A DNA stretch of 64,000 nucleotides from an uncultured Candidatus Saccharibacteria bacterium (lineage in GTDB: Bacteria > Patescibacteriota > Saccharimonadia > UBA4664 > CAZOQX01). Positions 38,352 to 49,233 of this stretch are shown in pieces. The translations under genes and the position numbers were made by a program. The stretch is taken from the NCBI GenBank assembly GCA_964582465.1, contig CAZOQX010000003.1, forward strand, positions 1,115 to 65,114. The letters run 5' to 3'. The notes beneath the pieces were generated by a model, which was given only the letters and a program-made list of their open reading frames with translations, had not been told where the DNA came from and searched no databases. Each line of letters begins with the position of its first letter. The stretch's first letter is position 1.

Positions 38352-39224
38352 TTAATGCTTTTGGCAATGCGGGCAAAAATGAGTGCCGCGGCCGGCCACC
38401 CGGATTTTCTCGATTGGAGTGCCACAGACGGGGCAAGCCTGACCTTCACGGCGAAACACCCGCGCATTCTGCAAATAATTACCCCTCACGCCCAAGATAT
38501 TCACAAAGTTGGTAAAGCTTGTGCCACCATAATCGATGGCTTGGCGCAGTACTTCCCGAATGGAGCCGTGCAAGGCCTCTATTTCCTTTTTGGTGAGGGA
38601 GCCTGCAAGCCGTGCTGGATGAACCTTAGCCAGGTGCAGCGACTCATCGGCATAAATATTACCAATCCCCGAGACAGTCGATTGATCCAAAATCACGGCC
38701 TTTATAGGCGCCTTGGGGTGGCGTTTGATCTGCTGCAAAAAGCCTTCAAGGGTAAAATCGGCCGTTAGCGGCTCGGGACCTAGCCGGCTAATGAGCGCAT
38801 CGGCCGGCACTTCCTCGGCGTGTACCAGCTTCACCCAGCCAAACTTGCGCTGGTCGTTAAAAAAAAGTCGGTCGCCGGAAGCAAATTCAAAAATAACCCG
38901 TGTGCTCCTGTCGGGCAGCTCCCGCATCATGCTGTCGGTCGGATGGCCACCGGCAAACCGCTCACCCCGTCGGGGCTGAAAAACTAATTGGCCCGTCATT
39001 TTGAGGTGAACCATGAGGTTGTAGCCGTTTTCTAGTTCCAAAAATAACACTTTGGCCCGGCGGGCAATACCTTTAATCTTTTGCCCCAGCACAAATTGTT
39101 GCAGTTGTGCTGACGTAATTTGCAGGCTCTTCGCCCACGTTGTTTCCACCGATTTAATCATCTGCCCACGAATCAGCTGGTCCAACCCTAATCTGATCGT
39201 CTCAACCTCGGGCAGCTCAGGCAT
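38352..39224 (-). CDS. mutM: Formamidopyrimidine-DNA glycosylase
   Basis: 290 aa. MPELPEVET N-terminus with catalytic Pro2/Glu3. C-terminal zinc finger CPVC...CPHC. Confidence 0.9.
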   Translation of the reverse strand: MPELPEVETIRLGLDQLIRGQMIKSVETTWAKSLQITSAQLQQFVLGQKIKGIARRAKVLFLELENGYNLMVHLKMTGQLVFQPRRGERFAGGHPTDSMMRELPDRSTRVIFEFASGDRLFFNDQRKFGWVKLVHAEEVPADALISRLGPEPLTADFTLEGFLQQIKRHPKAPIKAVILDQSTVSGIGNIYADESLHLAKVHPARLAGSLTKKEIEALHGSIREVLRQAIDYGGTSFTNFVNILGVRGNYLQNARVFRREGQACPVCGTPIEKIRVAGRGTHFCPHCQKH

Positions 39225-39595
39225 TAAAGCTCCTCGACTTTTACAATGTGCTCTGCGGAGATAGGAGTTAAGGAGGCAACCTGAAATGTCCTAGGTAGGT
39301 CCGTTGAACGGAATAGAGGTTGGTCCAACTCTAAATGCAGCCGCACAACCTTTTCGTGCTTGGCTTTTACATGCGCCAGGACGTCAGCCAAAGTTTTTTC
39401 ATAAAGTGAGTCGGTCGGATCTGCCATAAACACCGCTACCATACCGGCCCAATGTTTGGGCGCTGGATCACGCGGCTTAATAAAACCCTGTTCTACTATT
39501 TTGGCATAATTTTCTGCCGTCGTCAGGTGATACAAAACCCCGGCTGGCTTATAAGGCACCCAAAAATTCCCATACTCTTCGGGGATGCTAGGCAC
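39224..39595 (-). CDS. DUF952-like small protein (ADP-ribosylation-fold superfamily), tentative
   Basis: 123 aa. LYHLTTAENYAKIVEQGFIKP... and ...VVRLHLELDQPLF resemble the DUF952 pattern (iYHi...W....GfiH ... lvlL.iD..L). Assignment by pattern memory only. Confidence 0.35.
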   Translation of the reverse strand: MPSIPEEYGNFWVPYKPAGVLYHLTTAENYAKIVEQGFIKPRDPAPKHWAGMVAVFMADPTDSLYEKTLADVLAHVKAKHEKVVRLHLELDQPLFRSTDLPRTFQVASLTPISAEHIVKVEEL

Positions 39596-39893
39596 TGGGC
39601 ATTACCTCATCAAACGGTTCGTCGAATTCTCCGCGAAAAATCAGCTCGCTTCCGGGATAGCTGCTCTCGCGTTCGGGATGTTCGGTATCGACTCGCCGTC
39701 TAGCTTCATCCCGCGCTCCTTTGCTCTCCCATCTCGCGATAGCCATAAAAGTTCCCGGCTCGGTCAAGGATCGATGTAATTTTGTGCCTTGGGCTCCAGG
39801 ATAGGATTGCAAAAATCGGCTGTTGCGTTTCCAATGCTCGACGAACTTCTCTTTTTCGCCTTCTGGCACACGCCAAACAAAAATACCTTTCAT
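39588..39893 (-). CDS. ABM (antibiotic biosynthesis monooxygenase)-like small protein, tentative
   Basis: 101 aa. FVWRVPEGEKEKFVEHWKRN...GTFMAIARWESKGARDEA resembles the ferredoxin-like ABM fold. Confidence 0.35.
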   Translation of the reverse strand: MKGIFVWRVPEGEKEKFVEHWKRNSRFLQSYPGAQGTKLHRSLTEPGTFMAIARWESKGARDEARRRVDTEHPERESSYPGSELIFRGEFDEPFDEVMPSA

Positions 39894-42607
39894 TACATTT
39901 CGCCCCAGTTCTTGCCGATCTTCGTGTCAACGTCGAGCTTAACTTTAAATTTGTGAACTTTCTCCATTTTGTCCTTAAGGTAGGCGGCGACAGACTCGGC
40001 CTTCTTTTCAGACACTTCCACTATTAACGAATCATGCACCTGCAAAAGCATCTTGGCGTCGGAATCCATCTCCTGGCCGATTTGGATCATCACCAGCTTC
40101 ATCAAATCCGCCTCAGTGCCTTGGATGGGCATGTTAATAGCCGCCCGCTCCGCCGCCTGGCGCACCACAAAATTAGCGCTTTTTACATCCGGCGTCGGAC
40201 GGCGACGACCAAACAGCGTCTCCACATAACCATCTTTGTGCGCCTTCTCGCGCAAGCTCTCCAGATAAACGAGCAGCTGTTTGCGCATACCGAAATAGCG
40301 ATCAATGAAAGCCTTCGCCGTATCGTGATCCATGCCGGTCGCCACGCTCAAACCGTGCGGACTCATGCCGTAGAGCACGCCAAAGTTCACTGTTTTGGCG
40401 GCCGCGCGCATATCTTTCGTGACTTTATCCTCGGGCACGTTAAATAATTCCGCTGCCGTCTCCACATGAATATCGACGCCGCGATTGAACGTTTCAATCA
40501 TGTCTTGGTCGTCCGCCAGTACCGCCGCCAAGCGCAGTTCAAATTGTGAGTAGTCAGCCGAGATTAATAGTTTGCCGGCACCGGCCACAAAGGCCTTGCG
40601 GATTTCGCGACCCAGCTCGGTTCGCACCGGAATGTTTTGCAAATTGGGGTTATTCGAGCTCAGGCGACCGGTCGCGGCAATGGTTTGGTTATAGCTCGTA
40701 TGCAAGCGACCGTTTTTATCGACCAGGAGCGGCAAAGCATCGATGTACGTGCTTTTGAGCTTGGTCAGCTCACGGTATTCCATAATTAAATCGATAATCG
40801 GGTGAGTACCCTGGAGCTTTTCTAGCTCGCTTGCAGCCGTAGACACGCCACTCTTCACCCGTTTTAAACCTACCGATCCAAGATTCAACCTATCAAATAA
40901 AACCGCTTTGAGCTGCTGGGTAGAACTAATATTGAATGAACCGCCGGCCATTTCCCAAATGTCTTTTTCGAGCTTGGTGATGCGCTTGCCCACCACATCA
41001 GCAAGTTCTTTTAGGTAAACCGAGTCGAGTTTAATGCCCTCGATCTCCATGGCAGCAAGCACTGGGATGAGGGGCCATTCCTGTGTCTCGGCCACCTTCT
41101 GCAGACGGTCGGTTTTTTTTAGCTCCGGTCGCAACTTTTCGTACAGGCGCCAGGTGATATCAGCATCCTCGCAGGCGTAGCAATGGGCGTCTTCGATAGT
41201 CGTAACGTCAAACGTCGTTTGCCCACGACCCGTGCCGATTAAACGTTCAATTGGAATCATCTCCAAACCAAGTTCGTTAAAAGCCAGATCACTTAATCCT
41301 GGCGATCGGCGCAAAGGGTTGAGCAAAAATGCCGCCACCATAGTGTCGAACACTACCGGGCCAAGCTCCACCCCACAGGTACGAAACACCTCATAATCGA
41401 ATTTGATGTTGTGGCCAACTTTGCCGATTTTAGGATTTTCGAGCACCGGCTGGAGCAGTCGGAAGATCTCATCTTTTTTAAGTTGGTTGCCACTTTGATG
41501 GCCCACCGGGATATACCACGATTGCTTGGCCTTAAAGCTGATGGAAATCCCCACCAGTGTCGCGGTAATAGAATCTACACTGTTTGTTTCCGTATCAATC
41601 GCGATCACAGGCTGCTGCTCGAGCAACTTCACCAGTTTTGTGAGTTTTTCGGCTGTATCTACAATCTCGTAATCCACGTCCACCGGTTTTTCGATGGTTG
41701 CCTCGGCCTGATCGAACAAGCTCGGCACCTTGGCCTTTGCCGGTTGGGGTAATTTATCGAGCAAACTCTTAAATTCGAAGCGTTGGAAGAGCTCAAAAGC
41801 CCGATCCCGGTCGATCTCACCCCACCGGGATTTGTCCAGGTCGAGCTTGATTGGCATATCGGTCACAATGGTTGCAAGCTTGCGGCTGAGCATGGCCTGG
41901 TCCTTATTCTCCCGCAATTTGTCGGCTACCGCTGGCTTCAGCTCATCCAGGTGTTCATAAATCCCCTCGAGCGAACCATGCGTTTGAACTAAACTCATCG
42001 CCGTCTTCTCACCAATCCCCGGCACGCCGGCAATATTATCGCTGGCATCACCCTTGAGCGCCTTAAAATCCACGAACTGCGCTGGCGTCATGCCGTAAGT
42101 TTCCTGCATGGCCGCAGTATCAAAGATCACCGTGTCCGTCATGCCGCGCCGCATCGTGTAAACTCGCGTATTGTGGTCAATCAGCTGCAGCTCATCCTTG
42201 TCGCCCGTTACAATCACCGTATCTAAATTTTGGACCGAGGATTGTTTTGCGAGCGTGCCAATAATGTCGTCAGCCTCGTAGTCTTCCACTTCTACAAGCG
42301 GAATGGCGAGAGCGTCAATTACTTCTTTGACCAGGGGAATTTGCTGGCGCAGATCATCCGGCATTTCCGCTCGGTTAGCCTTATATGTGGGTGAGAGGTC
42401 ATTGCGAAATGTCTTCTTCGATTTATCCCAAGCCACTACCACATAGTCTGGCTTCAAGTCGCGAATGCTGTTTAGGAGCATCAGCGTAAAGCCGTACACA
42501 GCGTTAGTGGGCGTACCGTCTTTAGTGGAAAGTCCCGGGATAGCATGATAACCGCGGTGAAATACCGCGTTGCCATCAAATAGTACTATCCTCTTCTTTG
42601 CTGCCAT
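39893..42607 (-). CDS. polA: DNA polymerase I
   Basis: 904 aa. 5'-3' exonuclease N-terminus, 3'-5' exo-like middle, and polymerase motifs (DYSQFELR, KTVNFGVLYG, QVHDSLIVE). Confidence 0.95.
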   Translation of the reverse strand: MAAKKRIVLFDGNAVFHRGYHAIPGLSTKDGTPTNAVYGFTLMLLNSIRDLKPDYVVVAWDKSKKTFRNDLSPTYKANRAEMPDDLRQQIPLVKEVIDALAIPLVEVEDYEADDIIGTLAKQSSVQNLDTVIVTGDKDELQLIDHNTRVYTMRRGMTDTVIFDTAAMQETYGMTPAQFVDFKALKGDASDNIAGVPGIGEKTAMSLVQTHGSLEGIYEHLDELKPAVADKLRENKDQAMLSRKLATIVTDMPIKLDLDKSRWGEIDRDRAFELFQRFEFKSLLDKLPQPAKAKVPSLFDQAEATIEKPVDVDYEIVDTAEKLTKLVKLLEQQPVIAIDTETNSVDSITATLVGISISFKAKQSWYIPVGHQSGNQLKKDEIFRLLQPVLENPKIGKVGHNIKFDYEVFRTCGVELGPVVFDTMVAAFLLNPLRRSPGLSDLAFNELGLEMIPIERLIGTGRGQTTFDVTTIEDAHCYACEDADITWRLYEKLRPELKKTDRLQKVAETQEWPLIPVLAAMEIEGIKLDSVYLKELADVVGKRITKLEKDIWEMAGGSFNISSTQQLKAVLFDRLNLGSVGLKRVKSGVSTAASELEKLQGTHPIIDLIMEYRELTKLKSTYIDALPLLVDKNGRLHTSYNQTIAATGRLSSNNPNLQNIPVRTELGREIRKAFVAGAGKLLISADYSQFELRLAAVLADDQDMIETFNRGVDIHVETAAELFNVPEDKVTKDMRAAAKTVNFGVLYGMSPHGLSVATGMDHDTAKAFIDRYFGMRKQLLVYLESLREKAHKDGYVETLFGRRRPTPDVKSANFVVRQAAERAAINMPIQGTEADLMKLVMIQIGQEMDSDAKMLLQVHDSLIVEVSEKKAESVAAYLKDKMEKVHKFKVKLDVDTKIGKNWGEM

Positions 42608-42722
42608 TACATTAATTATAGCGAAATTGCTTACTTTCGTGCCGCTTAAGGTTGCTAATCAGGTTGTCAGATTGCAAAATTGCTTTATTGGCATTGCCCG
42701 CTCTTCGACAAAAGGAGCAAAG

Positions 42723-43286
42723 TTGAGCACTCCGACCCTGACACGCCCGGCCCGAACCTACTGGAAGGTCGAGCGCCTGAAGCTGAGCTACAGTGGCATC
42801 GAGGAACGTCGCGAACAGGTACGGCTGCAATCCGAGGCCAACCTCATCGCCTCGCTGTGCGCAAATGGTCTCCACGCCCCGGCACTGGATCTCGACTTTG
42901 AGGTCGATACAGTGAACGTCGGAGACCGAACCCTGCTGACCTTCCACAAGCGAGTGCCTATGCGAGGCTTCAAGTCTCTGCTCAGGGCCTGGCAGGCCTC
43001 GGGCATGTGGCCTGGAGGTGAATGGTGGTGGCAGCCAGGAAGCGTGACACTCATGACTCTGTATCCGACGCGCCTAGTCGCCTCCAGCACGCCCGGCCAC
43101 CACCACCTCTACTACGATCGAGAGATCACCTGGGAGGAATACGCCGAGCTGCTACGTGGACTTCGCGACGCCGGGCTCATCCAGCGCGGGTTCTGTCGCA
43201 TGAGCCTCCGGCGCAAAATGACCATGTTGCGCCTCCCCGGGCACACCAAGAAGACCACACCTCTTCAACCCAGGTTCTCCGACTAG
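42723..43286 (+). CDS. PrimPol-like (bifunctional primase/polymerase N-terminal domain-like) protein, tentative; first gene of GC-rich island
   Basis: TTG start at 42723, 7 nt after AAGGAG. The track ORF from 42570 overlaps the polA 5' end. LDLDFEVD (DxD-like) and STPGHHHLYYD (sGxHhyF-like) motifs are spaced ~50 aa, as in PF09250-type prim-pol domains. GC is high by eye. Confidence 0.35.
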   Translation: MSTPTLTRPARTYWKVERLKLSYSGIEERREQVRLQSEANLIASLCANGLHAPALDLDFEVDTVNVGDRTLLTFHKRVPMRGFKSLLRAWQASGMWPGGEWWWQPGSVTLMTLYPTRLVASSTPGHHHLYYDREITWEEYAELLRGLRDAGLIQRGFCRMSLRRKMTMLRLPGHTKKTTPLQPRFSD

Positions 43287-43320
43287 TGTCGGCACGCGGA
43301 CAGTTTGATTGGAGGTTCCA

Positions 43321-43527
43321 GTGGCAAAGTTGAAGCCACGACAGAGGCAAATCCTCGCAGCCCTGGTTTCCCTCGGCGGCGAGGGCAGTACCCGCGAGAT
43401 CGCCGAGAAAGCTGGACTCTCTCCGAACGGTGTAGCCCAGACGCTGGGCTCCCCCGCCTTCGACGACATTGTCGAAGGCTTGGACGGCAAGGCCGGCGAC
43501 TACCGGTGGAAACTGCGCGTTCGCTGA
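43321..43527 (+). CDS. Small winged-helix DNA-binding protein (MarR/ArsR-like)
   Basis: GTG start 5 nt after GGAGG. RQRQILAALVSLGGEGSTREIAEKAGLSPNGVAQTL has the typical wHTH recognition-helix pattern. Confidence 0.45.
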   Translation: MAKLKPRQRQILAALVSLGGEGSTREIAEKAGLSPNGVAQTLGSPAFDDIVEGLDGKAGDYRWKLRVR

Positions 43528-43731
43528 TGCCGAATTTCGGAATCAGCCAATTCGCCGCTGGTTTCACCTACTTCGTCGGTGCGAAACTTCAGCCGATCGC
43601 CGATCTTTTGACCGAACGCCGGTTACATGTGCTCGGCTGTGAGGACCGATTCAACAAGGACCGGCGGCGTCGGAAATTCGGCTGCATGCATTACCCCAAG
43701 GCAGCCATCAGACAATGGAGGAGGCACTGAC

Positions 43732-44154
43732 ATGGGTGAGATGTTGGTCGACGGCAGGGATGCCAAGGTCTACATTCTCTGCCGCCAGCCCGGTGACGTC
43801 CCGTTCGCGTGGTACGAATATTGGGTGGTGTTTCGCGATGGCGAAGTGATCGAGGGCGCTAGCACCAGCGTGCACGATCTCTCCATCGTCGGGGACACGC
43901 TCATGCACAGTCGCCGCATCAACAACGCCCAGTTCCAAACCCCGCCCACGCCGGGGCGAGGCAAGTCGTCGGAACGTTGGCCGGTTCGAGTCATTGAACT
44001 CGGCCACTACTACGGCGAGACCGATGAGGTGGACGATGATCCCCTCTTCTGTCGCTACGACTGCGGCGCCTTCATCACCTGGTATGAGGGTGATGCGCCA
44101 TCAGGCGTCGACCCGTTCGGCGAGTGCCCCAACCATCCGGAGGCCAAGCGATGA
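43732..44154 (+). CDS. Hypothetical protein (island gene 3)
   Basis: ATG preceded by GGAGGAGG. 140 aa. C-terminal Cys/His cluster (CRYDCGAF...GECPNHPE). No recognised family. Confidence 0.45.
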   Translation: MGEMLVDGRDAKVYILCRQPGDVPFAWYEYWVVFRDGEVIEGASTSVHDLSIVGDTLMHSRRINNAQFQTPPTPGRGKSSERWPVRVIELGHYYGETDEVDDDPLFCRYDCGAFITWYEGDAPSGVDPFGECPNHPEAKR

Positions 44155-44417
44155 GAGCTAGGCACTCCCCCACACCCAGTGGCACCCCGATCCGTGATTC
44201 AGAGTCAATCGGGCTCAGAAGCACGTTACTGCGGCAGGCCGCTCCCTTGCGGCGGGCCGCTCTGGACCTTGATCCGGATGCGTGGCGACGAGCGGTTAAA
44301 GTGATCGGCTCTCCCACGGATGTCCGTTATGTGCTCGCCATGTTCGACGACGAACTGCCGGCACAGGCGCTGGAGTTCGCCCGACGCATGCTGGCAAAGA
44401 CGGAGGCATCAAAATGA
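44151..44417 (+). CDS. Hypothetical protein (island gene 4)
   Basis: ATGA start/stop overlap with the upstream gene. 88 aa with an Arg-rich N-terminus. Exact frame choice is uncertain (alternative track ORF 44124..44417). Confidence 0.3.
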   Translation: MRARHSPTPSGTPIRDSESIGLRSTLLRQAAPLRRAALDLDPDAWRRAVKVIGSPTDVRYVLAMFDDELPAQALEFARRMLAKTEASK

Positions 44418-44530
44418 GCAAGCAAAAGACAGCTGTGATCGGTGCGGTCGGCCTGCTCGGGCTAGCGATGTTCTACCTCGGGCGGTTCATGGCCAGGCAC
44501 TCGCACGACCTCGGACCCTGCGGCGATTAG
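44414..44530 (+). CDS. Tiny single-TM peptide (38 aa)
   Basis: ATGA overlap with the upstream stop. MSKQKTAVIGAVGLLGLAMFYLGRFMARHSHDLGPCGD. Confidence 0.35.
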   Translation: MSKQKTAVIGAVGLLGLAMFYLGRFMARHSHDLGPCGD

Positions 44531-44539
44531 GAGGTCAAG

Positions 44540-44638
44540 ATGCGCAAGCTTGTAGGCTACACGCTTCTGGGCATCGCGGCCTACCTCGTTGCCAAGATCA
44601 TCTGGGATTTCCTCGGCCATCTCAGTGAACGGCCATGA
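44540..44638 (+). CDS. Tiny single-TM peptide (32 aa)
   Basis: Strong SD AGGAGG 6 nt upstream. MRKLVGYTLLGIAAYLVAKIIWDFLGHLSERP. Confidence 0.35.
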   Translation: MRKLVGYTLLGIAAYLVAKIIWDFLGHLSERP

Positions 44639-44645
44639 GCGCCTC

Positions 44646-45038
44646 ATGAGATCTAGCCCACTCCTCAGCCTGCGTGAGCGTGAAGTCGCCGAACTCGCAA
44701 GCTCCGGTCTGACCAACAAGGAGATTGCCGCTCAGCTCGGCCTCTCGCCCGAAACCATCAAGAATCACTTGTCTCATGCCTTCACGAAACTCGGCGTACA
44801 CAACCGAATTGAGCTGGCTCGCGAGATGGTGCACCGCGAGATGATCCGCGCGAGCAGCACGAGGGTGACAATTCTCGCCACGTCCTTTGACGACGGATCT
44901 TGGTTCGTTGCCATCAAGGAGGACGAAACAGTCAGCGTCGTTCCGTTCAGCAAACGTGAGGAATGGGAGGCTTTTCGCCAAGCACTGGAAGTCCTCCAGC
45001 CCTACCTCTGCGCCCAACTGCGGATAATCGAGCGGTGA
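44646..45038 (+). CDS. LuxR/GerE-family HTH transcriptional regulator with uncharacterised C-terminal domain
   Basis: LSLREREVAELASSGLTNKEIAAQLGLSPETIKNHLSHAFTKLGV is a canonical LuxR-type HTH placed at the N-terminus. Last gene of the island. Followed by a hairpin. Confidence 0.65.
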   Translation: MRSSPLLSLREREVAELASSGLTNKEIAAQLGLSPETIKNHLSHAFTKLGVHNRIELAREMVHREMIRASSTRVTILATSFDDGSWFVAIKEDETVSVVPFSKREEWEAFRQALEVLQPYLCAQLRIIER

Positions 45039-45058
45039 GCTCTAGCAGCCCGACACCG

Positions 45059-45088
45059 GGGCCCGGGATTCTAACGAATTCCGGGCCC
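45059..45088 (+). terminator. GC-rich hairpin (8-bp stem GGGCCCGG/CCGGGCCC) downstream of the LuxR gene
   Basis: Inverted repeat read directly from the sequence. Followed by TTGGCCGTTTTA. Confidence 0.45.
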
Positions 45089-45112
45089 TTGGCCGTTTTA
45101 ATTACAAAGAAA

Positions 45113-45154
45113 GCGCCCCTGGCTCGTGCAAAGCCTCGGGGCGCAGTCGTTTTT
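45113..45154. terminator. Bidirectional rho-independent terminator (rpoD on minus; island operon on plus)
   Basis: GCGCCCC...GGGGCGC stem. T-runs on both strands (AGTCGTTTTT on plus, TTTCTTTGTAATTAAAA on minus). Immediately 3' of the rpoD stop. Confidence 0.6.
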
Positions 45155-46301
45155 AATGCAGGTAATCGCGTAGTTTTTTACTTTCGCGGTGCTTGCGCAG
45201 TTTGGCGAGCGCCTTGGCCTCGATCTGACGAATTCGCTCGCGGGTCACGCCGAATTCCTGTCCCACCTCTTCCAGTGTGTGACTGCGGCCATCGTCTAGC
45301 CCGAAGCGCATGCGTAAAATTTTCTGTTCGCGTGGGGTAAGTAAGTCAAGCATCTCACCTACCTGCTCTTTCAGCAGCTGATCGGTGGCAGCCTCAAGCG
45401 GCGTGCGCGACTCTTCGTCCGGAATGAAATCGCCCAGCGTAGAGTCGGCTTCCTCGCCCACCGGCGCTTCGAGCGACACAATGTCTTGTTTGATCTTCAT
45501 AATGTGATTAACCTTCTCGACTTCCATGTCCATCTCGGCGGCGAGTTCTTCTACCATCGGTTCGCGTCCCAGTTCTTGCTGCAAGCGCCGCTGGGTGCGA
45601 ATCAACTTATTAATCGTCTCCACCATGTGGACGGGGATACGGATGGTACGGGCTTGGTCGGCAATAGCCCGGGTAATAGCCTGGCGAATCCACCAGGTCG
45701 CATAAGTCGAAAACTTGTAGCCCTTGGTGTAATCGAATTTCTCCACAGCGCGGAGTAGGCCAGTGTTACCCTCCTGAATTAGGTCGAGTAAGTCGAGCCC
45801 ACGCCCAATGTATTTTTTCGCGATCGATACCACCAGACGCATGTTGGCCTCAGCCATCTTGTCCTTAGCCCGCTTGCCATCGGCCGCAGCCAGCGTGTTT
45901 TTAGACGCGTTCACGCCCTTCTGGATCCGCTTCGCGAGCGCTACTTCTTCCTCGGCTTTCAGCAAAGGGATTTTACCAATTTCGCGCAGGTACAGCCTAA
46001 CCGAATCGTCGGCCACTGTGTCATCGATATACGTTTCGGGCTTCTCGGGCTGGGTTTCCTCTTCCTCTTCGCCCTGGCCCCACATCAGCTCATCGCGCTG
46101 ATCAATTACTTCAACGCCGGCATCAAACAGTTGCTGGTAAAACTCATCGAGCTCCTCGACATTATCCTCGGCCTCGCCATAGATCGCGCTAACTTCTTGC
46201 TGTGTGACATAGCCACGCTCCTTGCCCTTGGCAATCAGCTGTTCAACTTCGGAATTGGTCGACGCATCTTCTTCTTGTGGTTTCTGAACCTTTTTCGGCA
46301 T
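45153..46301 (-). CDS. rpoD: RNA polymerase sigma factor RpoD (sigma-70)
   Basis: 382 aa. Regions 1.2 to 4 (e.g. [28 protein letters not shown], region 4.2 [25 protein letters not shown]). Confidence 0.95.
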
Positions 46302-48033
46302 TATAACTCCTTTACCTTGGCCGACAGCGCTTGGTGTTCGGCCATCAACTTTTGGGCCAAATCGCGCCTACCGGCTCGCTCGGCCTCTTTAATTTGATGC
46401 GTAATTTCTTCGTGGCGTCTCCGGGTGGCCAACACGACTAGTTCTTTTGCCAAGTGGAAGGCTTCGAAACTGCGGTCTTGCGGTCCGATCTCGGAATATT
46501 CTTCTTCGCCCTTTAATGAAAGGATTTTAACATAATCTGACAGTTCTGTCAGATCTCTCGCTATCTGGTCAGAAGTAGCGGCCGGCCTGGCTTTGAGAAA
46601 TTTGCAAATAGCTTGGTGCTCACTCCGGCTGAACAATTCTTCGTCCATATCGGCCAGGCTAGCGCGCAGATCGGGAAAGACTAAGTTCAGAGCCAGCAAG
46701 TTCTCCTCCACCACCTCTTCGCGGCTCAACTGCAGTGGGTCAGCCTTCTCCTTCGCCTCCATCTGGCGGACAGGCTTCGGCTCGGCTTGACTCAGTTTTT
46801 CTTTAATTACGGCGGGCTCACCATCGACCCGTTCAGCCAAAAGTTTAATGTAATGCTCTTGCTCCACCGGATCACGCAGATATTTGAGTACGGGTATGAT
46901 TTGATCGGTAAAACTGCGCTTGCCCAGGGCACTCGCCAGATCGCTGCCTGCCGCGTGGCGCTCAAACAACCAGTCCATGACGTATTTAGCCTCGGAAACG
47001 GCGGTTTGCCACAGCTCTGGCTTTTGCTTAATAAGCTCGTCGGGATCCTTGGCGCCAGCCATATCCACGACCGAAAGTGTTAAATTCAGCTGCTGGCTCA
47101 GGTCAATAGCCCGCTCCGTGGCACGCAGTCCGGCGGCGTCTTGATCAAAGGCCAGTTTGACGTTCTTTGTCAGCCGGCCAACCATCTTCAATTGGTCGAG
47201 CGTAAGCGCTGTGCCGCTCGAGGCTACCACCTGTTTCACGCCGGCCTGGTGGCTTGCCACGACGTCCATGTTCCCCTCTACTATTACAAGTTCGTCATGT
47301 TGTTTGACCGCCTCTTTGGCCAAGTGGAAGCCGTAGAGCACCCGACCCTTGTCATAAATCAGTGTCTGCGGGGTATTAAAATACTTTGGCCCGGTGGCCG
47401 TCGGATCAAGAATCCTCGCGGCGATGCCCACCGGCTCCCCGCGCTCATTAGAAATCGGAAAAGTTATGCGCCCACGAAACATATCAAACGTGCGATTGTC
47501 GCGCTGGCCCGTCAGCCCAGCCTGGTTGAGCTCAGCTATTGTAAAGCCCTGCTTGGTCATAAAGGTGGTCAGCCCTGACTGCGTCACCGGTGCATAGCCG
47601 AGCCGAAAATCTAGAATTGACTGCTTGGTCAGTCCGCGCTGCTTCATATAATCGAGGGCTCGCGGGTTCTTGGTCAGGCTAAGCTGATAGTACTTGACGG
47701 CAAGCGTCATGGCAGCCTTAAGCCGGTCTTTCAGCTTGGTGTTGCTCGGCCCCCGGCTCTTTAATTCCACCCCGGCCCGTTTAGCTAGCACCTCCAAGGC
47801 CTGCCGGAAATCCAAGCCTTCCATTTTCATCACGAATTTAAAGATGTCGCCGCCCTCGCCGCAGCCAAAGCAGTGCCAAATACCCTTTTCGGCGCTCACC
47901 ATCATACTAGGCGTCTTCTCGTTGTGGAACGGACAAACGCCTTTCATATTGCGCCCGGCTGGCTTGAGCTGAACGTAGCTAGCCACCACCTCGGCCACAC
48001 CCAGGCGTTCTTTAATTTCCGCCACTTCATCCA
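46301..48033 (-). CDS. dnaG: DNA primase DnaG
   Basis: Zinc-binding [10 protein letters not shown]...CFGCG, TOPRIM (VIVVEGNMDV) and a C-terminal domain. Start placed at [11 protein letters not shown] (48033) rather than the track's upstream-extended start at 48217. Confidence 0.85.
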
Positions 48034-48113
48034 TTAGAAGTAATTGTAGCACTTGAAAGCAAGAGCCCCGCCGGATGACCGGCAGGGCCCGCTTGAACCG
48101 CTGTGCTGTGTCG

Positions 48114-48302
48114 TCACTGTGAGTTATAGATGCTGGCATCCTCGCGGATACTGGCGACACAGTGAGTGCACAGGAGGCAAGACCCCAGCCAGCAGTGCGA
48201 GCAATCCTCGCAGTCATGCGGCGGCCCCACCTTGAAGAAGTCCCGACGCCGCGTCGCGCTGTTCTGGCTCGGAGTCGCTTGCTCGGTACCCGGTGCTGCC
48301 AC
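48114..48302 (-). CDS. Possible small Cys-rich ORF (CxxCxxCx4CxxCxxC) in a GC-rich block upstream of dnaG; coding status uncertain
   Basis: Translation verified codon by codon: ...HDCEDCSHCWLGSCLLCTHCVASIRED... GTG start. Overlapping plus-strand ORFs also exist, so this may be non-coding. Confidence 0.2.
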   Translation of the reverse strand: MAAPGTEQATPSQNSATRRRDFFKVGPPHDCEDCSHCWLGSCLLCTHCVASIREDASIYNSQ

Positions 48303-49143: not shown

Positions 49144-49233
49144 GGAGAGGTCGCATAGTGGCCTAGTGCGCTCGCTTGGAAAGCGGGTGAAGTCGCAAGG
49201 CTTCCGAGGGTTCGAATCCCTCCCTCTCCGCCA
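49144..49233 (+). tRNA. tRNA-Ser (anticodon GGA), CCA encoded
   Basis: Hand-folded. Acceptor GGAGAGG/CCTCTCC, 3-bp D-stem (type II), anticodon stem CTCGC/GCGGG with loop TTGGAAA (anticodon GGA), long variable arm TGAAGTCGCAAGGCTTCC, T-arm GAGGG-TTCGAAT-CCCTC, discriminator G, CCA. Confidence 0.85.

Follow-up and report, generated by a model that had tools for sequence, protein, structure and literature searches.

Genomic context of the block

Between polA and rpoD, a 64,000-nucleotide stretch of contig CAZOQX010000003.1 (positions 1,115 to 65,114; assembly GCA_964582465.1 of an uncultured Candidatus Saccharibacteria bacterium; this whole stretch is hereafter called the window) carries a block of about 2.5 kb with eight open reading frames (ORFs), here referred to as g1, g2, g2b, and g3 to g7. 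The block ORFs all lie on the plus strand, and the neighboring polA (39893-42607), rpoD (45153-46301), and dnaG (46301-48217) all lie on the minus strand; this opposed orientation, already noted in a preliminary description of the same DNA, was confirmed from the ORF positions. The block is probably a recently acquired, non-autonomous accessory cassette of phage type, most likely derived from phages of Actinobacteria with a high G+C content (GC). This view builds on the composition of the block, the structure of its insertion site, and the distribution of the g1 protein family.

From 42723 to 45038, the GC is 0.607, compared with 0.520 +/- 0.017 (maximum 0.566) in all other 2.3 kb segments of the window (z = 5.1). 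The tetranucleotide distance of this interval is the highest among 228 segments (z = 5.9), and the GC at third codon positions (GC3) ranges from 0.65 to 0.82 in the block genes vs 0.48 to 0.66 in neighboring genes. The compositional anomaly is real and far beyond chance, so that the GC enrichment first judged by eye is borne out.

The backbone is that of a member of the Saccharimonadia, and the closest relatives of its polA are found in metagenome-assembled genomes (MAGs) of Saccharimonadia or Saccharibacteria, at 48-56% identity. The order dnaG-rpoD-polA is kept in six of the related MAGs. In two of these (L005 and L007), polA directly adjoins rpoD at a distance of 38-39 bp, i.e., the arrangement that the preliminary description had proposed to look for; in four others (L002, L003, L006, and L009), the gap is filled by 2.1-3.7 kb of mutually unrelated genes. 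The block is missing from all 15 related polA loci, and no gap filler resembles it. The two empty sites and the four unrelated fillers together indicate that the block was inserted in this lineage alone, at a spot whose content varies, and the earlier claim of horizontal acquisition is sustained by the outlying composition and by the absence from every related Saccharimonadia locus. In addition, g1, g2, g3, g4, and g7 each form a singleton cluster among about 15 billion proteins. Genomic islands are recognized by a deviating composition, by being missing from syntenic relatives, and by a defined site of insertion, and the block displays all three.

Given a metagenome-derived contig with an abrupt change of composition, an assembly chimera or a binning contaminant has to be considered, in which actinobacterial or phage DNA would have been misjoined into a Saccharimonadia contig. 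This is extremely unlikely. Both flanks carry adjacent genes of the same conserved syntenic block, and the polA-island-rpoD arrangement with both of its junctions was recovered by another assembler (Logan assembly, run SRR9179560), which argues against a chimera. Moreover, the native rpoD terminator and the polA -10 box are kept and the target appears duplicated, which a misjoin would not yield. A literature search for run SRR9179560 gave no result.

Some of the gap fillers of the related genomes are of interest in their own right. Three of them (L003:6378-7190, L003:9462-9863, and L002:4041-4619) encode secreted proteins whose motif (CESSGNW...GGLQ) resembles that of resuscitation-promoting factors or transglycosylases, a type of domain that is typical of Actinobacteria, and the L003 gap also holds a purF-like amidophosphoribosyltransferase gene. 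The L002 and L003 gap fillers may be another instance of actinobacteria-type genes at this locus.

Structure of the insertion site

The 38-39 bp gap of L005 and L007 consists of a hairpin equivalent to the rpoD terminator of the window and in the same place, followed by TTTCTGCTATAAT(TA), a -10-like box, ahead of the polA ATG. Alignment of the window to these empty sites revealed that each of its junctions holds a copy of the ancestral spacer (TTTCTGCTATAATTA). The two copies (TTTCGCTATAATTAA on the polA side and TTTCTTTGTAATTAA on the rpoD side) are identical at 12 of 15 positions and lie on the same strand; the statement in the preliminary description that no repeat-bounded ends are visible is therefore called into question by the alignment and a pattern search. 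Since 1.4 matches of this quality are expected by chance in the window, the presence of a repeat exactly at the opposite edge is suggestive and not proven. Taken at this strength, the repeats suggest a bounded insert of ~2.47 kb (42627-45097) with a duplicated target, which would fit an integrase-type or other target-duplicating insertion.

The right end of the block contains two convergent hairpins, namely, I) the island terminator, which is followed by a T-run, and II) the minus-strand rpoD terminator (z -4.1 and z -4.2, respectively). The left side has no significant fold structure (z +0.6), and the bracketing by terminator hairpins that was initially described thus applies to the right end and not to the left.

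A remnant of the rpoD 3' end was also considered as a candidate attachment (att) site and was rejected. It consists of a 30 nt direct repeat with 73% identity between 42618-42647 and the 3' coding end of rpoD (45165-45194), and the antisense frame at this repeat reads ...NLKRHESKQFRYN*, resembling the C-terminus of RpoD. A profile of RpoD C-termini did not recover the peptide among 2,308 six-frame peptides, the DNA alignment was marginal (p about 0.02-0.035), and no convincing rpoD-end repeat was found beside polA in L002, L003, L006, or L009. The polA-side copy is accounted for by the conserved polA -10 region, and the candidate was dropped for the 15 bp spacer duplication.

Gene layout and coupling

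The co-directionality of the ORFs was confirmed, and their number had to be raised from seven to eight, as the 67 aa g2b fills the gap before g3 (Table 1). A GC3 of 0.68 in the g2b frame vs 0.54 for an N-terminal extension of g3 favors g2b, and a frame plot displays an excess of GC at third positions in the proposed frame of all eight genes. Shine-Dalgarno (SD) sequences precede g1, g2, g3, and g6, and start/stop overlaps join g2 to g2b, g3 to g4, and g4 to g5; the operon-like coupling described before is thus visible in the sequence. The leader upstream of g1 presumably holds the promoter of the island.

Table 1. Positions of the block features in the window, of the genes that fill the same gap in related genomes, and of long-form homologues of g1 elsewhere. 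HTH, helix-turn-helix; AEP, archaeo-eukaryotic primase; TM, transmembrane segment.
Feature	Position	Strand	Remarks
Left flanking repeat TTTCGCTATAATTAA	42612-42626	-	polA -10 region, 4 nt upstream of the polA ATG; aligns to the L005/L007 spacer
AT-rich leader upstream of g1	42627-42722	+	GC about 0.44-0.50; two 15-mer copies, ATAGCGAAATTGCTT / ATTGCAAAATTGCTT
g1, 187 aa	42723-43286	+	TTG start after AAAGGAG; putative divergent AEP-like fold, actinophage family, long form
g2, 68 aa	43321-43527	+	GTG start after GGAGG; probable small HTH or winged-HTH protein, sub-threshold matches
g2b, 67 aa, basic	43527-43730	+	TGATG overlap with the g2 stop; independent Logan gene call; GC3
g3, 140 aa, orphan	43732-44154	+	SD GGAGGAGG; Cys/His C-terminus (CRYDC...CPNH)
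g4, 88 aa, orphan	44151-44417	+	ATGA overlap with g3
g5, 38 aa, single-TM micro-protein	44414-44530	+	ATGA overlap with g4; hydropathy; GC3 0.82
g6, 32 aa, single-TM micro-protein	44540-44638	+	After GGAGG; hydropathy
g7, 130 aa	44646-45038	+	GerE/LuxR HTH at residues 7-59 (GerE 6e-20); orphan C-terminal half
Island operon terminator hairpin	45058-45089	+	14 bp GC-rich stem (inverted repeat), then TTGGCCGTTTT; -30.7 kcal/mol, z -4.1
Right flanking repeat TTTCTTTGTAATTAA	45098-45112	-	Degenerate second copy, 12/15 vs left copy; directly after the rpoD terminator
Native rpoD terminator hairpin	45109-45148	-	Backbone edge; -25.3 kcal/mol, z -4.2
Gap fillers of related genomes	L002:2926-5381, L003:6217-9955, L006:7682-9994, L009:4852-6935		rpoD-polA gap
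Long-insert homologues of g1	L017:2995-3657, L021:3571-4194, L022:670-1293, L023:51-671, L097:3800-4375		Single genes

The divergent leader between polA and g1 displays a further feature: the 15-mers ATAGCGAAATTGCTT and ATTGCAAAATTGCTT occur at 42618-42632 and 42671-42685, 53 bp apart, and a third copy lies inside polA (42401-42415). The pair could be a candidate operator for g2 or g7, or serve the regulation of polA, and chance is possible as well.

Family and distribution of g1

g1 matched no model of Pfam (E <= 1), NCBIfam, or PADLOC. It did match PHROG 10893 (2.8e-13) and PHROG 18245 (2.3e-10), both of which are listed with unknown function, and a tblastn search returned 123 phage records, in which every product is annotated as hypothetical. 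The hosts of these phages belong to Mycobacterium, Gordonia, Microbacterium, Arthrobacter, Rhodococcus, or Curtobacterium, the BFVD matches are actinophage proteins throughout, and none of 72,556 plasmids was matched. A profile of 17 homologues searched against 1.84 billion proteins retrieved 3,065 cluster representatives, 2,870 of them below 1e-10, and scored g1 itself at 5.8e-42. The family is therefore large, with over 3,000 clusters when grouped at 50% identity, and has no entry in Pfam. In annotated phages of Gordonia and Arthrobacter, the homologues adjoin RecA, DnaE, MazG, and Cas4 genes; at other loci, the neighbors are portal and protease genes, and the mean GC of the homologue loci is 0.62. 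Early or DNA-metabolism regions of actinophages are the typical setting of the family.

Conservation was counted over 138 family representatives. At least 84% of them, and for most positions more than 90%, share each of the residues S44, H51, D56, D58, S121, T123, G125, H126, H128, Y130, W137, Y140, R170, P172, and K176, and all are present in g1. The counts are 133/138 for D56, 135/138 for D58, 137/138 for H128, and 125/138 for R170, and H126 also reaches at least 90%. The LDLD (D56, D58) and STPGHHHLYYD motifs pointed out in the preliminary description are thus present and make up the conserved core of the family. For motif III, there is no unambiguous candidate; D132 is found in 104 and E154 (Gln in g1) in 109 of the 138 representatives.

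Within this family, g1 is a long form, in which motifs I and II are separated by an insert of 62 aa with a beta-beta-alpha-beta pattern. Such an insert is present in 15 of the 138 representatives, and short forms occur in phage contexts. The closest long-form homologues are P0002 (46% identity), P0003, P0004, P0006, and L097. These long forms are flanked by housekeeping genes (encoding, e.g., uracil-DNA glycosylase, superoxide dismutase, NUDIX, P-type ATPase, ABC-F, and UbiA proteins) whose composition they match, and their contigs have no genes in common with the Saccharimonadia loci. It seems as though they make up a cellular branch, possibly a domesticated one, of a phage family.

These homologues bear on the possibility that a prophage or satellite infecting Saccharibacteria themselves or another Patescibacterium left the block behind as a remnant, in place of an origin from actinophage or actinobacterial DNA. 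The closest homologues with the same architecture reside on contigs with a GC of 0.43-0.58, like the backbone (0.52), a 15 bp target duplication is typical of integrase-mediated insertion, and prophages have been reported in Patescibacteria (PMC12455944). Against this origin, the GC of the block (0.61) lies nine points above that of the backbone, although a resident phage normally resembles its host; no structural, integrase, or lysis gene is left; and the long-form homologues are solitary among housekeeping genes and not located in prophages. Such a resident element is considered quite unlikely.

As a separate observation, some family members (P0022, P0023, P0024, P0123, P0055, and P0130) have a tandem domain pair of about 300 aa or are fused to 250-450 residues without a Pfam domain. 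The fusion partners returned no informative Pfam domains; these architectures might hint at the function of the g1 family.

Predicted fold and activity of g1

An AlphaFold2 model of g1 built with an alignment reached a pLDDT of 88.8 and a pTM of 0.83, and a Foldseek search of this model against the PDB returned nothing below E 0.03. When the family profile was compared with PDB sequences, the only match was HP0184, which aligns over TPGHxHLY and is not significant (E 0.46, or 0.1 with a larger profile). The commonest weak Pfam match among the 138 members is PF24387, an AEP-like family (9/138). HP0184 clusters together with RepB' and S-2L PrimPol within the AEP superfamily (PMC8065100), and an essential Arg (motif IV) was described for this group by Kazlauskas et al. 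(PMC5862659). Each of these lines is weak, and all point in the same direction, i.e., to g1 being a remote protein of AEP fold. g1 may bind a nucleotide and a divalent metal via D56, D58, H128, and R170, and may perform a metal-dependent priming or nucleotidyl-transfer reaction on DNA. No literature that links an AEP with an actinobacteriophage was found.

As g1 matched no Pfam family at E <= 1, it is not a prim-pol of the PF09250 type, and none of 10 longer members of the family matched at E <= 0.01 either. The prim-pol-like character attributed to g1 at the outset holds in a loose sense, for the putative AEP-like fold and the motifs, and fails for PF09250.

The remaining genes of the block

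g7 matched GerE (PF00196) over residues 7-59 with 71.1 bits (cutoff 23.5; E 6e-20), and its C-terminal 70 residues have no homologue and no PDB match; an N-terminal HTH protein of the LuxR family with an unassigned C-terminal half, as formerly proposed, is therefore an apt description. The g7 homologues span the HTH only, i.e., no more than 53% of the query; those that carry a name come from the actinobacteria Aeromicrobium, Gordonia, and Trebonia, in which they are response regulators. g2, previously taken to be a small winged-HTH protein, has sub-threshold HTH matches only (Sigma70_r4_2 7e-4, LexA_DNA_bind 3e-3, HTH_24 0.012) and a PDB sequence match to 'CAP repeat' (2e-4), and is a probable small HTH or winged-HTH DNA-binding protein on these grounds.

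g2b matched no family, no phage protein, and no PDB entry. g3 found only itself among 5.8 billion proteins and nothing in phages, IMG/VR, PDB, or Pfam, and g4 had no match in Pfam, PHROGs, NCBIfam, phages, IMG/VR, or PDB. g5 and g6 each contain a 19-residue hydrophobic stretch with a mean Kyte-Doolittle value of 1.77 (residues 8-26 and 4-22, respectively), in keeping with the two tiny single-TM peptides announced earlier; neither matched a Spd or other family, and the best hit of g6 was SieB at an insignificant E of 0.19. IMG/VR contains no close relative of g2, g3, g4, or g7, and no relative of g2-g7 is encoded in the 123 g1-homologue loci (869 kb), so that the eight genes do not form a recurrent module.

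Mobility and defense

Domain searches of the plus- and minus-strand ORFs of 42600-45150 revealed no integrase, excisionase, FtsK-like Tra, or packaging gene. The antisense ORFs of the block contain no domains, and a FtsK/SpoIIIE-like Tra domain was not detected either, the largest island ORF being 187 aa. The absence of a visible integrase thus stands on both strands, and a cassette devoid of integrase, excisionase, transfer, and packaging genes cannot move by itself.

In one of the two readings offered by the preliminary description, the block is what remains, in decayed form, of the module by which an actinomycete integrative and conjugative element (AICE) replicates and spreads, with a prim-pol replicase, Spd-like membrane proteins, and regulators. 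Some AICEs do use prim-pol-type replicases, and the high GC, the actinobacterial affinity of g1 and of the g7 HTH, the AEP-type fold proposed for g1, and the two small membrane proteins would all suit such a module. It is nevertheless very unlikely, and the claim was not upheld: besides the integrase, excisionase, and Tra, a NUDIX Pif gene is lacking on either strand; g1 matches neither PF09250 nor any Pfam replicase; its family occurs in 123 records of actinophages but in no plasmid of the 72,556 searched; g5 and g6 match no Spd family; and the other island genes occur at none of the 123 g1-homologue loci.

A self-regulated defense, exclusion, or toxin system was considered as well, in which the regulators would control the two membrane micro-proteins and the AEP-like enzyme, and which would protect against phages or affect the host; such a system could also have come from a phage. 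Superinfection exclusion is often mediated by repressors and small membrane proteins that prophages carry. None of the eight ORFs is disrupted, their coupling is tight and their ribosome-binding sites are strong, every near-invariant family residue is kept in g1, and the content of the locus differs from one relative to another. On the other hand, a search of g1, g2, and g3-g7 with PADLOC-DB v2 returned nothing for g1 and g3-g6, and the matches of g2 and g7, to CARF/CasR-associated models, were of a generic HTH kind; the gene set is found together nowhere else, and g3, g4, and the C-terminal half of g7 have no homologues and hence give no guilt-by-association signal. The intactness fits a recent arrival equally well, since the composition is not ameliorated. 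A defense or toxin system is regarded as unlikely.

Neighboring genes and labels of related genomes

Several features outside the block were observed. The only RNA gene detected in the window with ARAGORN and Rfam is tRNA-Ser(GGA) (49144-49233), to which no element is attached. The longest dnaG ORF has a 61-residue N-terminal extension (48035-48217, minus strand) without counterpart in relatives; since homology begins at residue 61-62, the true start is probably an internal ATG. Between polA and fpg/mutM (39224-39893, minus strand) lie genes for a 101 aa ABM-monooxygenase-like protein and a 123 aa protein without a Pfam match; neither was matched in the related polA loci (tblastn, E <= 1e-3), where the polA-mutM spacing also differs. 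Lastly, four MAGs labeled 'uncultured Gammaproteobacteria' (L008, L010, L011, and L012) encode a polA that is 45-46% identical to that of the window, like Komeilibacteria MAGs of the candidate phyla radiation (CPR), and their labels may be wrong.

Origin and significance of the cassette

The reading favored here with moderate confidence, i.e., a phage-type cassette from the sphere of high-GC Actinobacteria, can be put in terms of a single event. About 2.47 kb would have entered the 38-39 bp spacer between the rpoD terminator and the polA promoter, with ~15 bp of the target copied at each end and the native rpoD terminator and polA -10 preserved. The cassette forms a single unit of eight coupled genes, divergent from polA and convergent with rpoD, with its own strong terminator. 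Its donor pool may have been actinobacteria-associated phages, g2 and the GerE-type g7 might control the operon, and the membrane peptides and the three orphans may be accessory (moron-like) genes in the manner of phages, possibly for superinfection exclusion. The cassette could be what is left of a larger element, or else illegitimate or site-specific recombination could have captured it as a fragment.

Several observations weigh against this scenario. Only g1 ties the cassette to phages, as g3 and g4 are orphans and the relatives of g7 are generic LuxR proteins. The closest long forms of g1 are solitary on cellular-looking contigs, with the backbone-like GC given above, and not in phages, so that the immediate donor could be a cell rather than a phage. 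g1 has a Gln at position 154, where 79% of the family have a Glu. A scan of the leader for the sigma-70 consensus gave no match, and no promoter was thus detected, and the flanking repeat, with its chance expectation above one, is short and was found post hoc.

As a genomic island, the block is nothing unusual: small insertions that are confined to one lineage and carry mostly orphan genes occur frequently, also in Patescibacteria (PMC12455944), and nothing marks the block as a new biological system. Its value lies in being a clean and datable case in which foreign high-GC DNA bearing the signature of actinophages entered the chromosome of a Saccharimonadia member, at a site that can be precisely reconstructed. 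Cultured Saccharibacteria are obligate epibionts whose hosts are Actinobacteria, and the case therefore bears on gene exchange of such epibionts with their hosts and with the viruses of these hosts. Wider interest attaches to the g1 family and not to the locus: the family is very large and uncharacterized, with strict Asp/His/Arg motifs and a putative primase-like fold. A more far-reaching view, which is doubtful at present, combines two propositions, namely, I) that g1 represents an unrecognized AEP branch whose minimal members, of about 120 aa, would then be smaller than any other known AEP-type enzyme, and II) that the operon is a working module from the virome of the host, used, e.g., to exclude phages or to prime or modify DNA. 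If true, the latter would directly demonstrate that genes pass from phages of the host to the epibiont.

Comparison with known systems

The actinobacteriophage proteins of PHROG 10893 / 18245, e.g., Gordonia phage ParvusTarda gp73 and Arthrobacter phage Peas gp48, have the C-terminal core (residues 115-177) in common with g1 at 43-50% identity, as well as the motifs HAPALDxD, PSSTPGHxHLY, and LRxPG. g1 differs from them in being the rarer long form, in residing on a Saccharimonadia chromosome and not in a phage, and in having Gln154 instead of Glu. With the PrimPol-PV1 group, i.e., the RSF1010 RepB' primase (3H25/3H20), Helicobacter pylori HP0184 (2ATZ), and cyanophage S-2L PrimPol (6ZP9), g1 appears to share a DxD-type motif I, a motif II with His (TPGHxHLY, the form seen in HP0184), and, ahead of PG, a conserved Arg that resembles motif IV. 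Its sequence similarity to this group is not significant (best E 0.1), and it has no clear motif III Asp and no match to PF09250 or RepB_primase; unlike characterized AEPs, it lacks a PriCT or helicase domain, and most members of its family are far smaller (120-150 aa).

The HTH of g7 is the canonical GerE domain that is common to stand-alone GerE/LuxR-type regulators, but g7 has it at the N-terminus, followed by a 70 aa orphan domain, and contains no receiver or autoinducer-binding domain.

At the level of the whole cassette, AICEs of the pSAM2 / pMEA300 type likewise combine high-GC, actinobacteria-linked genes in one direction that include a primase-fold protein, small membrane proteins, and regulators. 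They differ from the island in their int, xis, FtsK-like tra, pif, and recognizable spd genes and in their size (9-24 kb vs 2.5 kb), and the family of g1 is absent from plasmids. A candidate counterpart of the att repeats of AICEs is the flanking repeat of the island, which is short and lies outside any tRNA gene.

Genomic islands and prophages are common in Patescibacteria (PMC12455944). Like the islands of these CPR bacteria, the block is of deviant composition, lineage-specific, and placed in a streamlined genome at a locus that is variable among relatives. It is set apart from them by its very small size, by consisting almost entirely of orphan genes, and by its apparent origin outside the phylum, whereas the transfers in that study were mostly within Patescibacteria.

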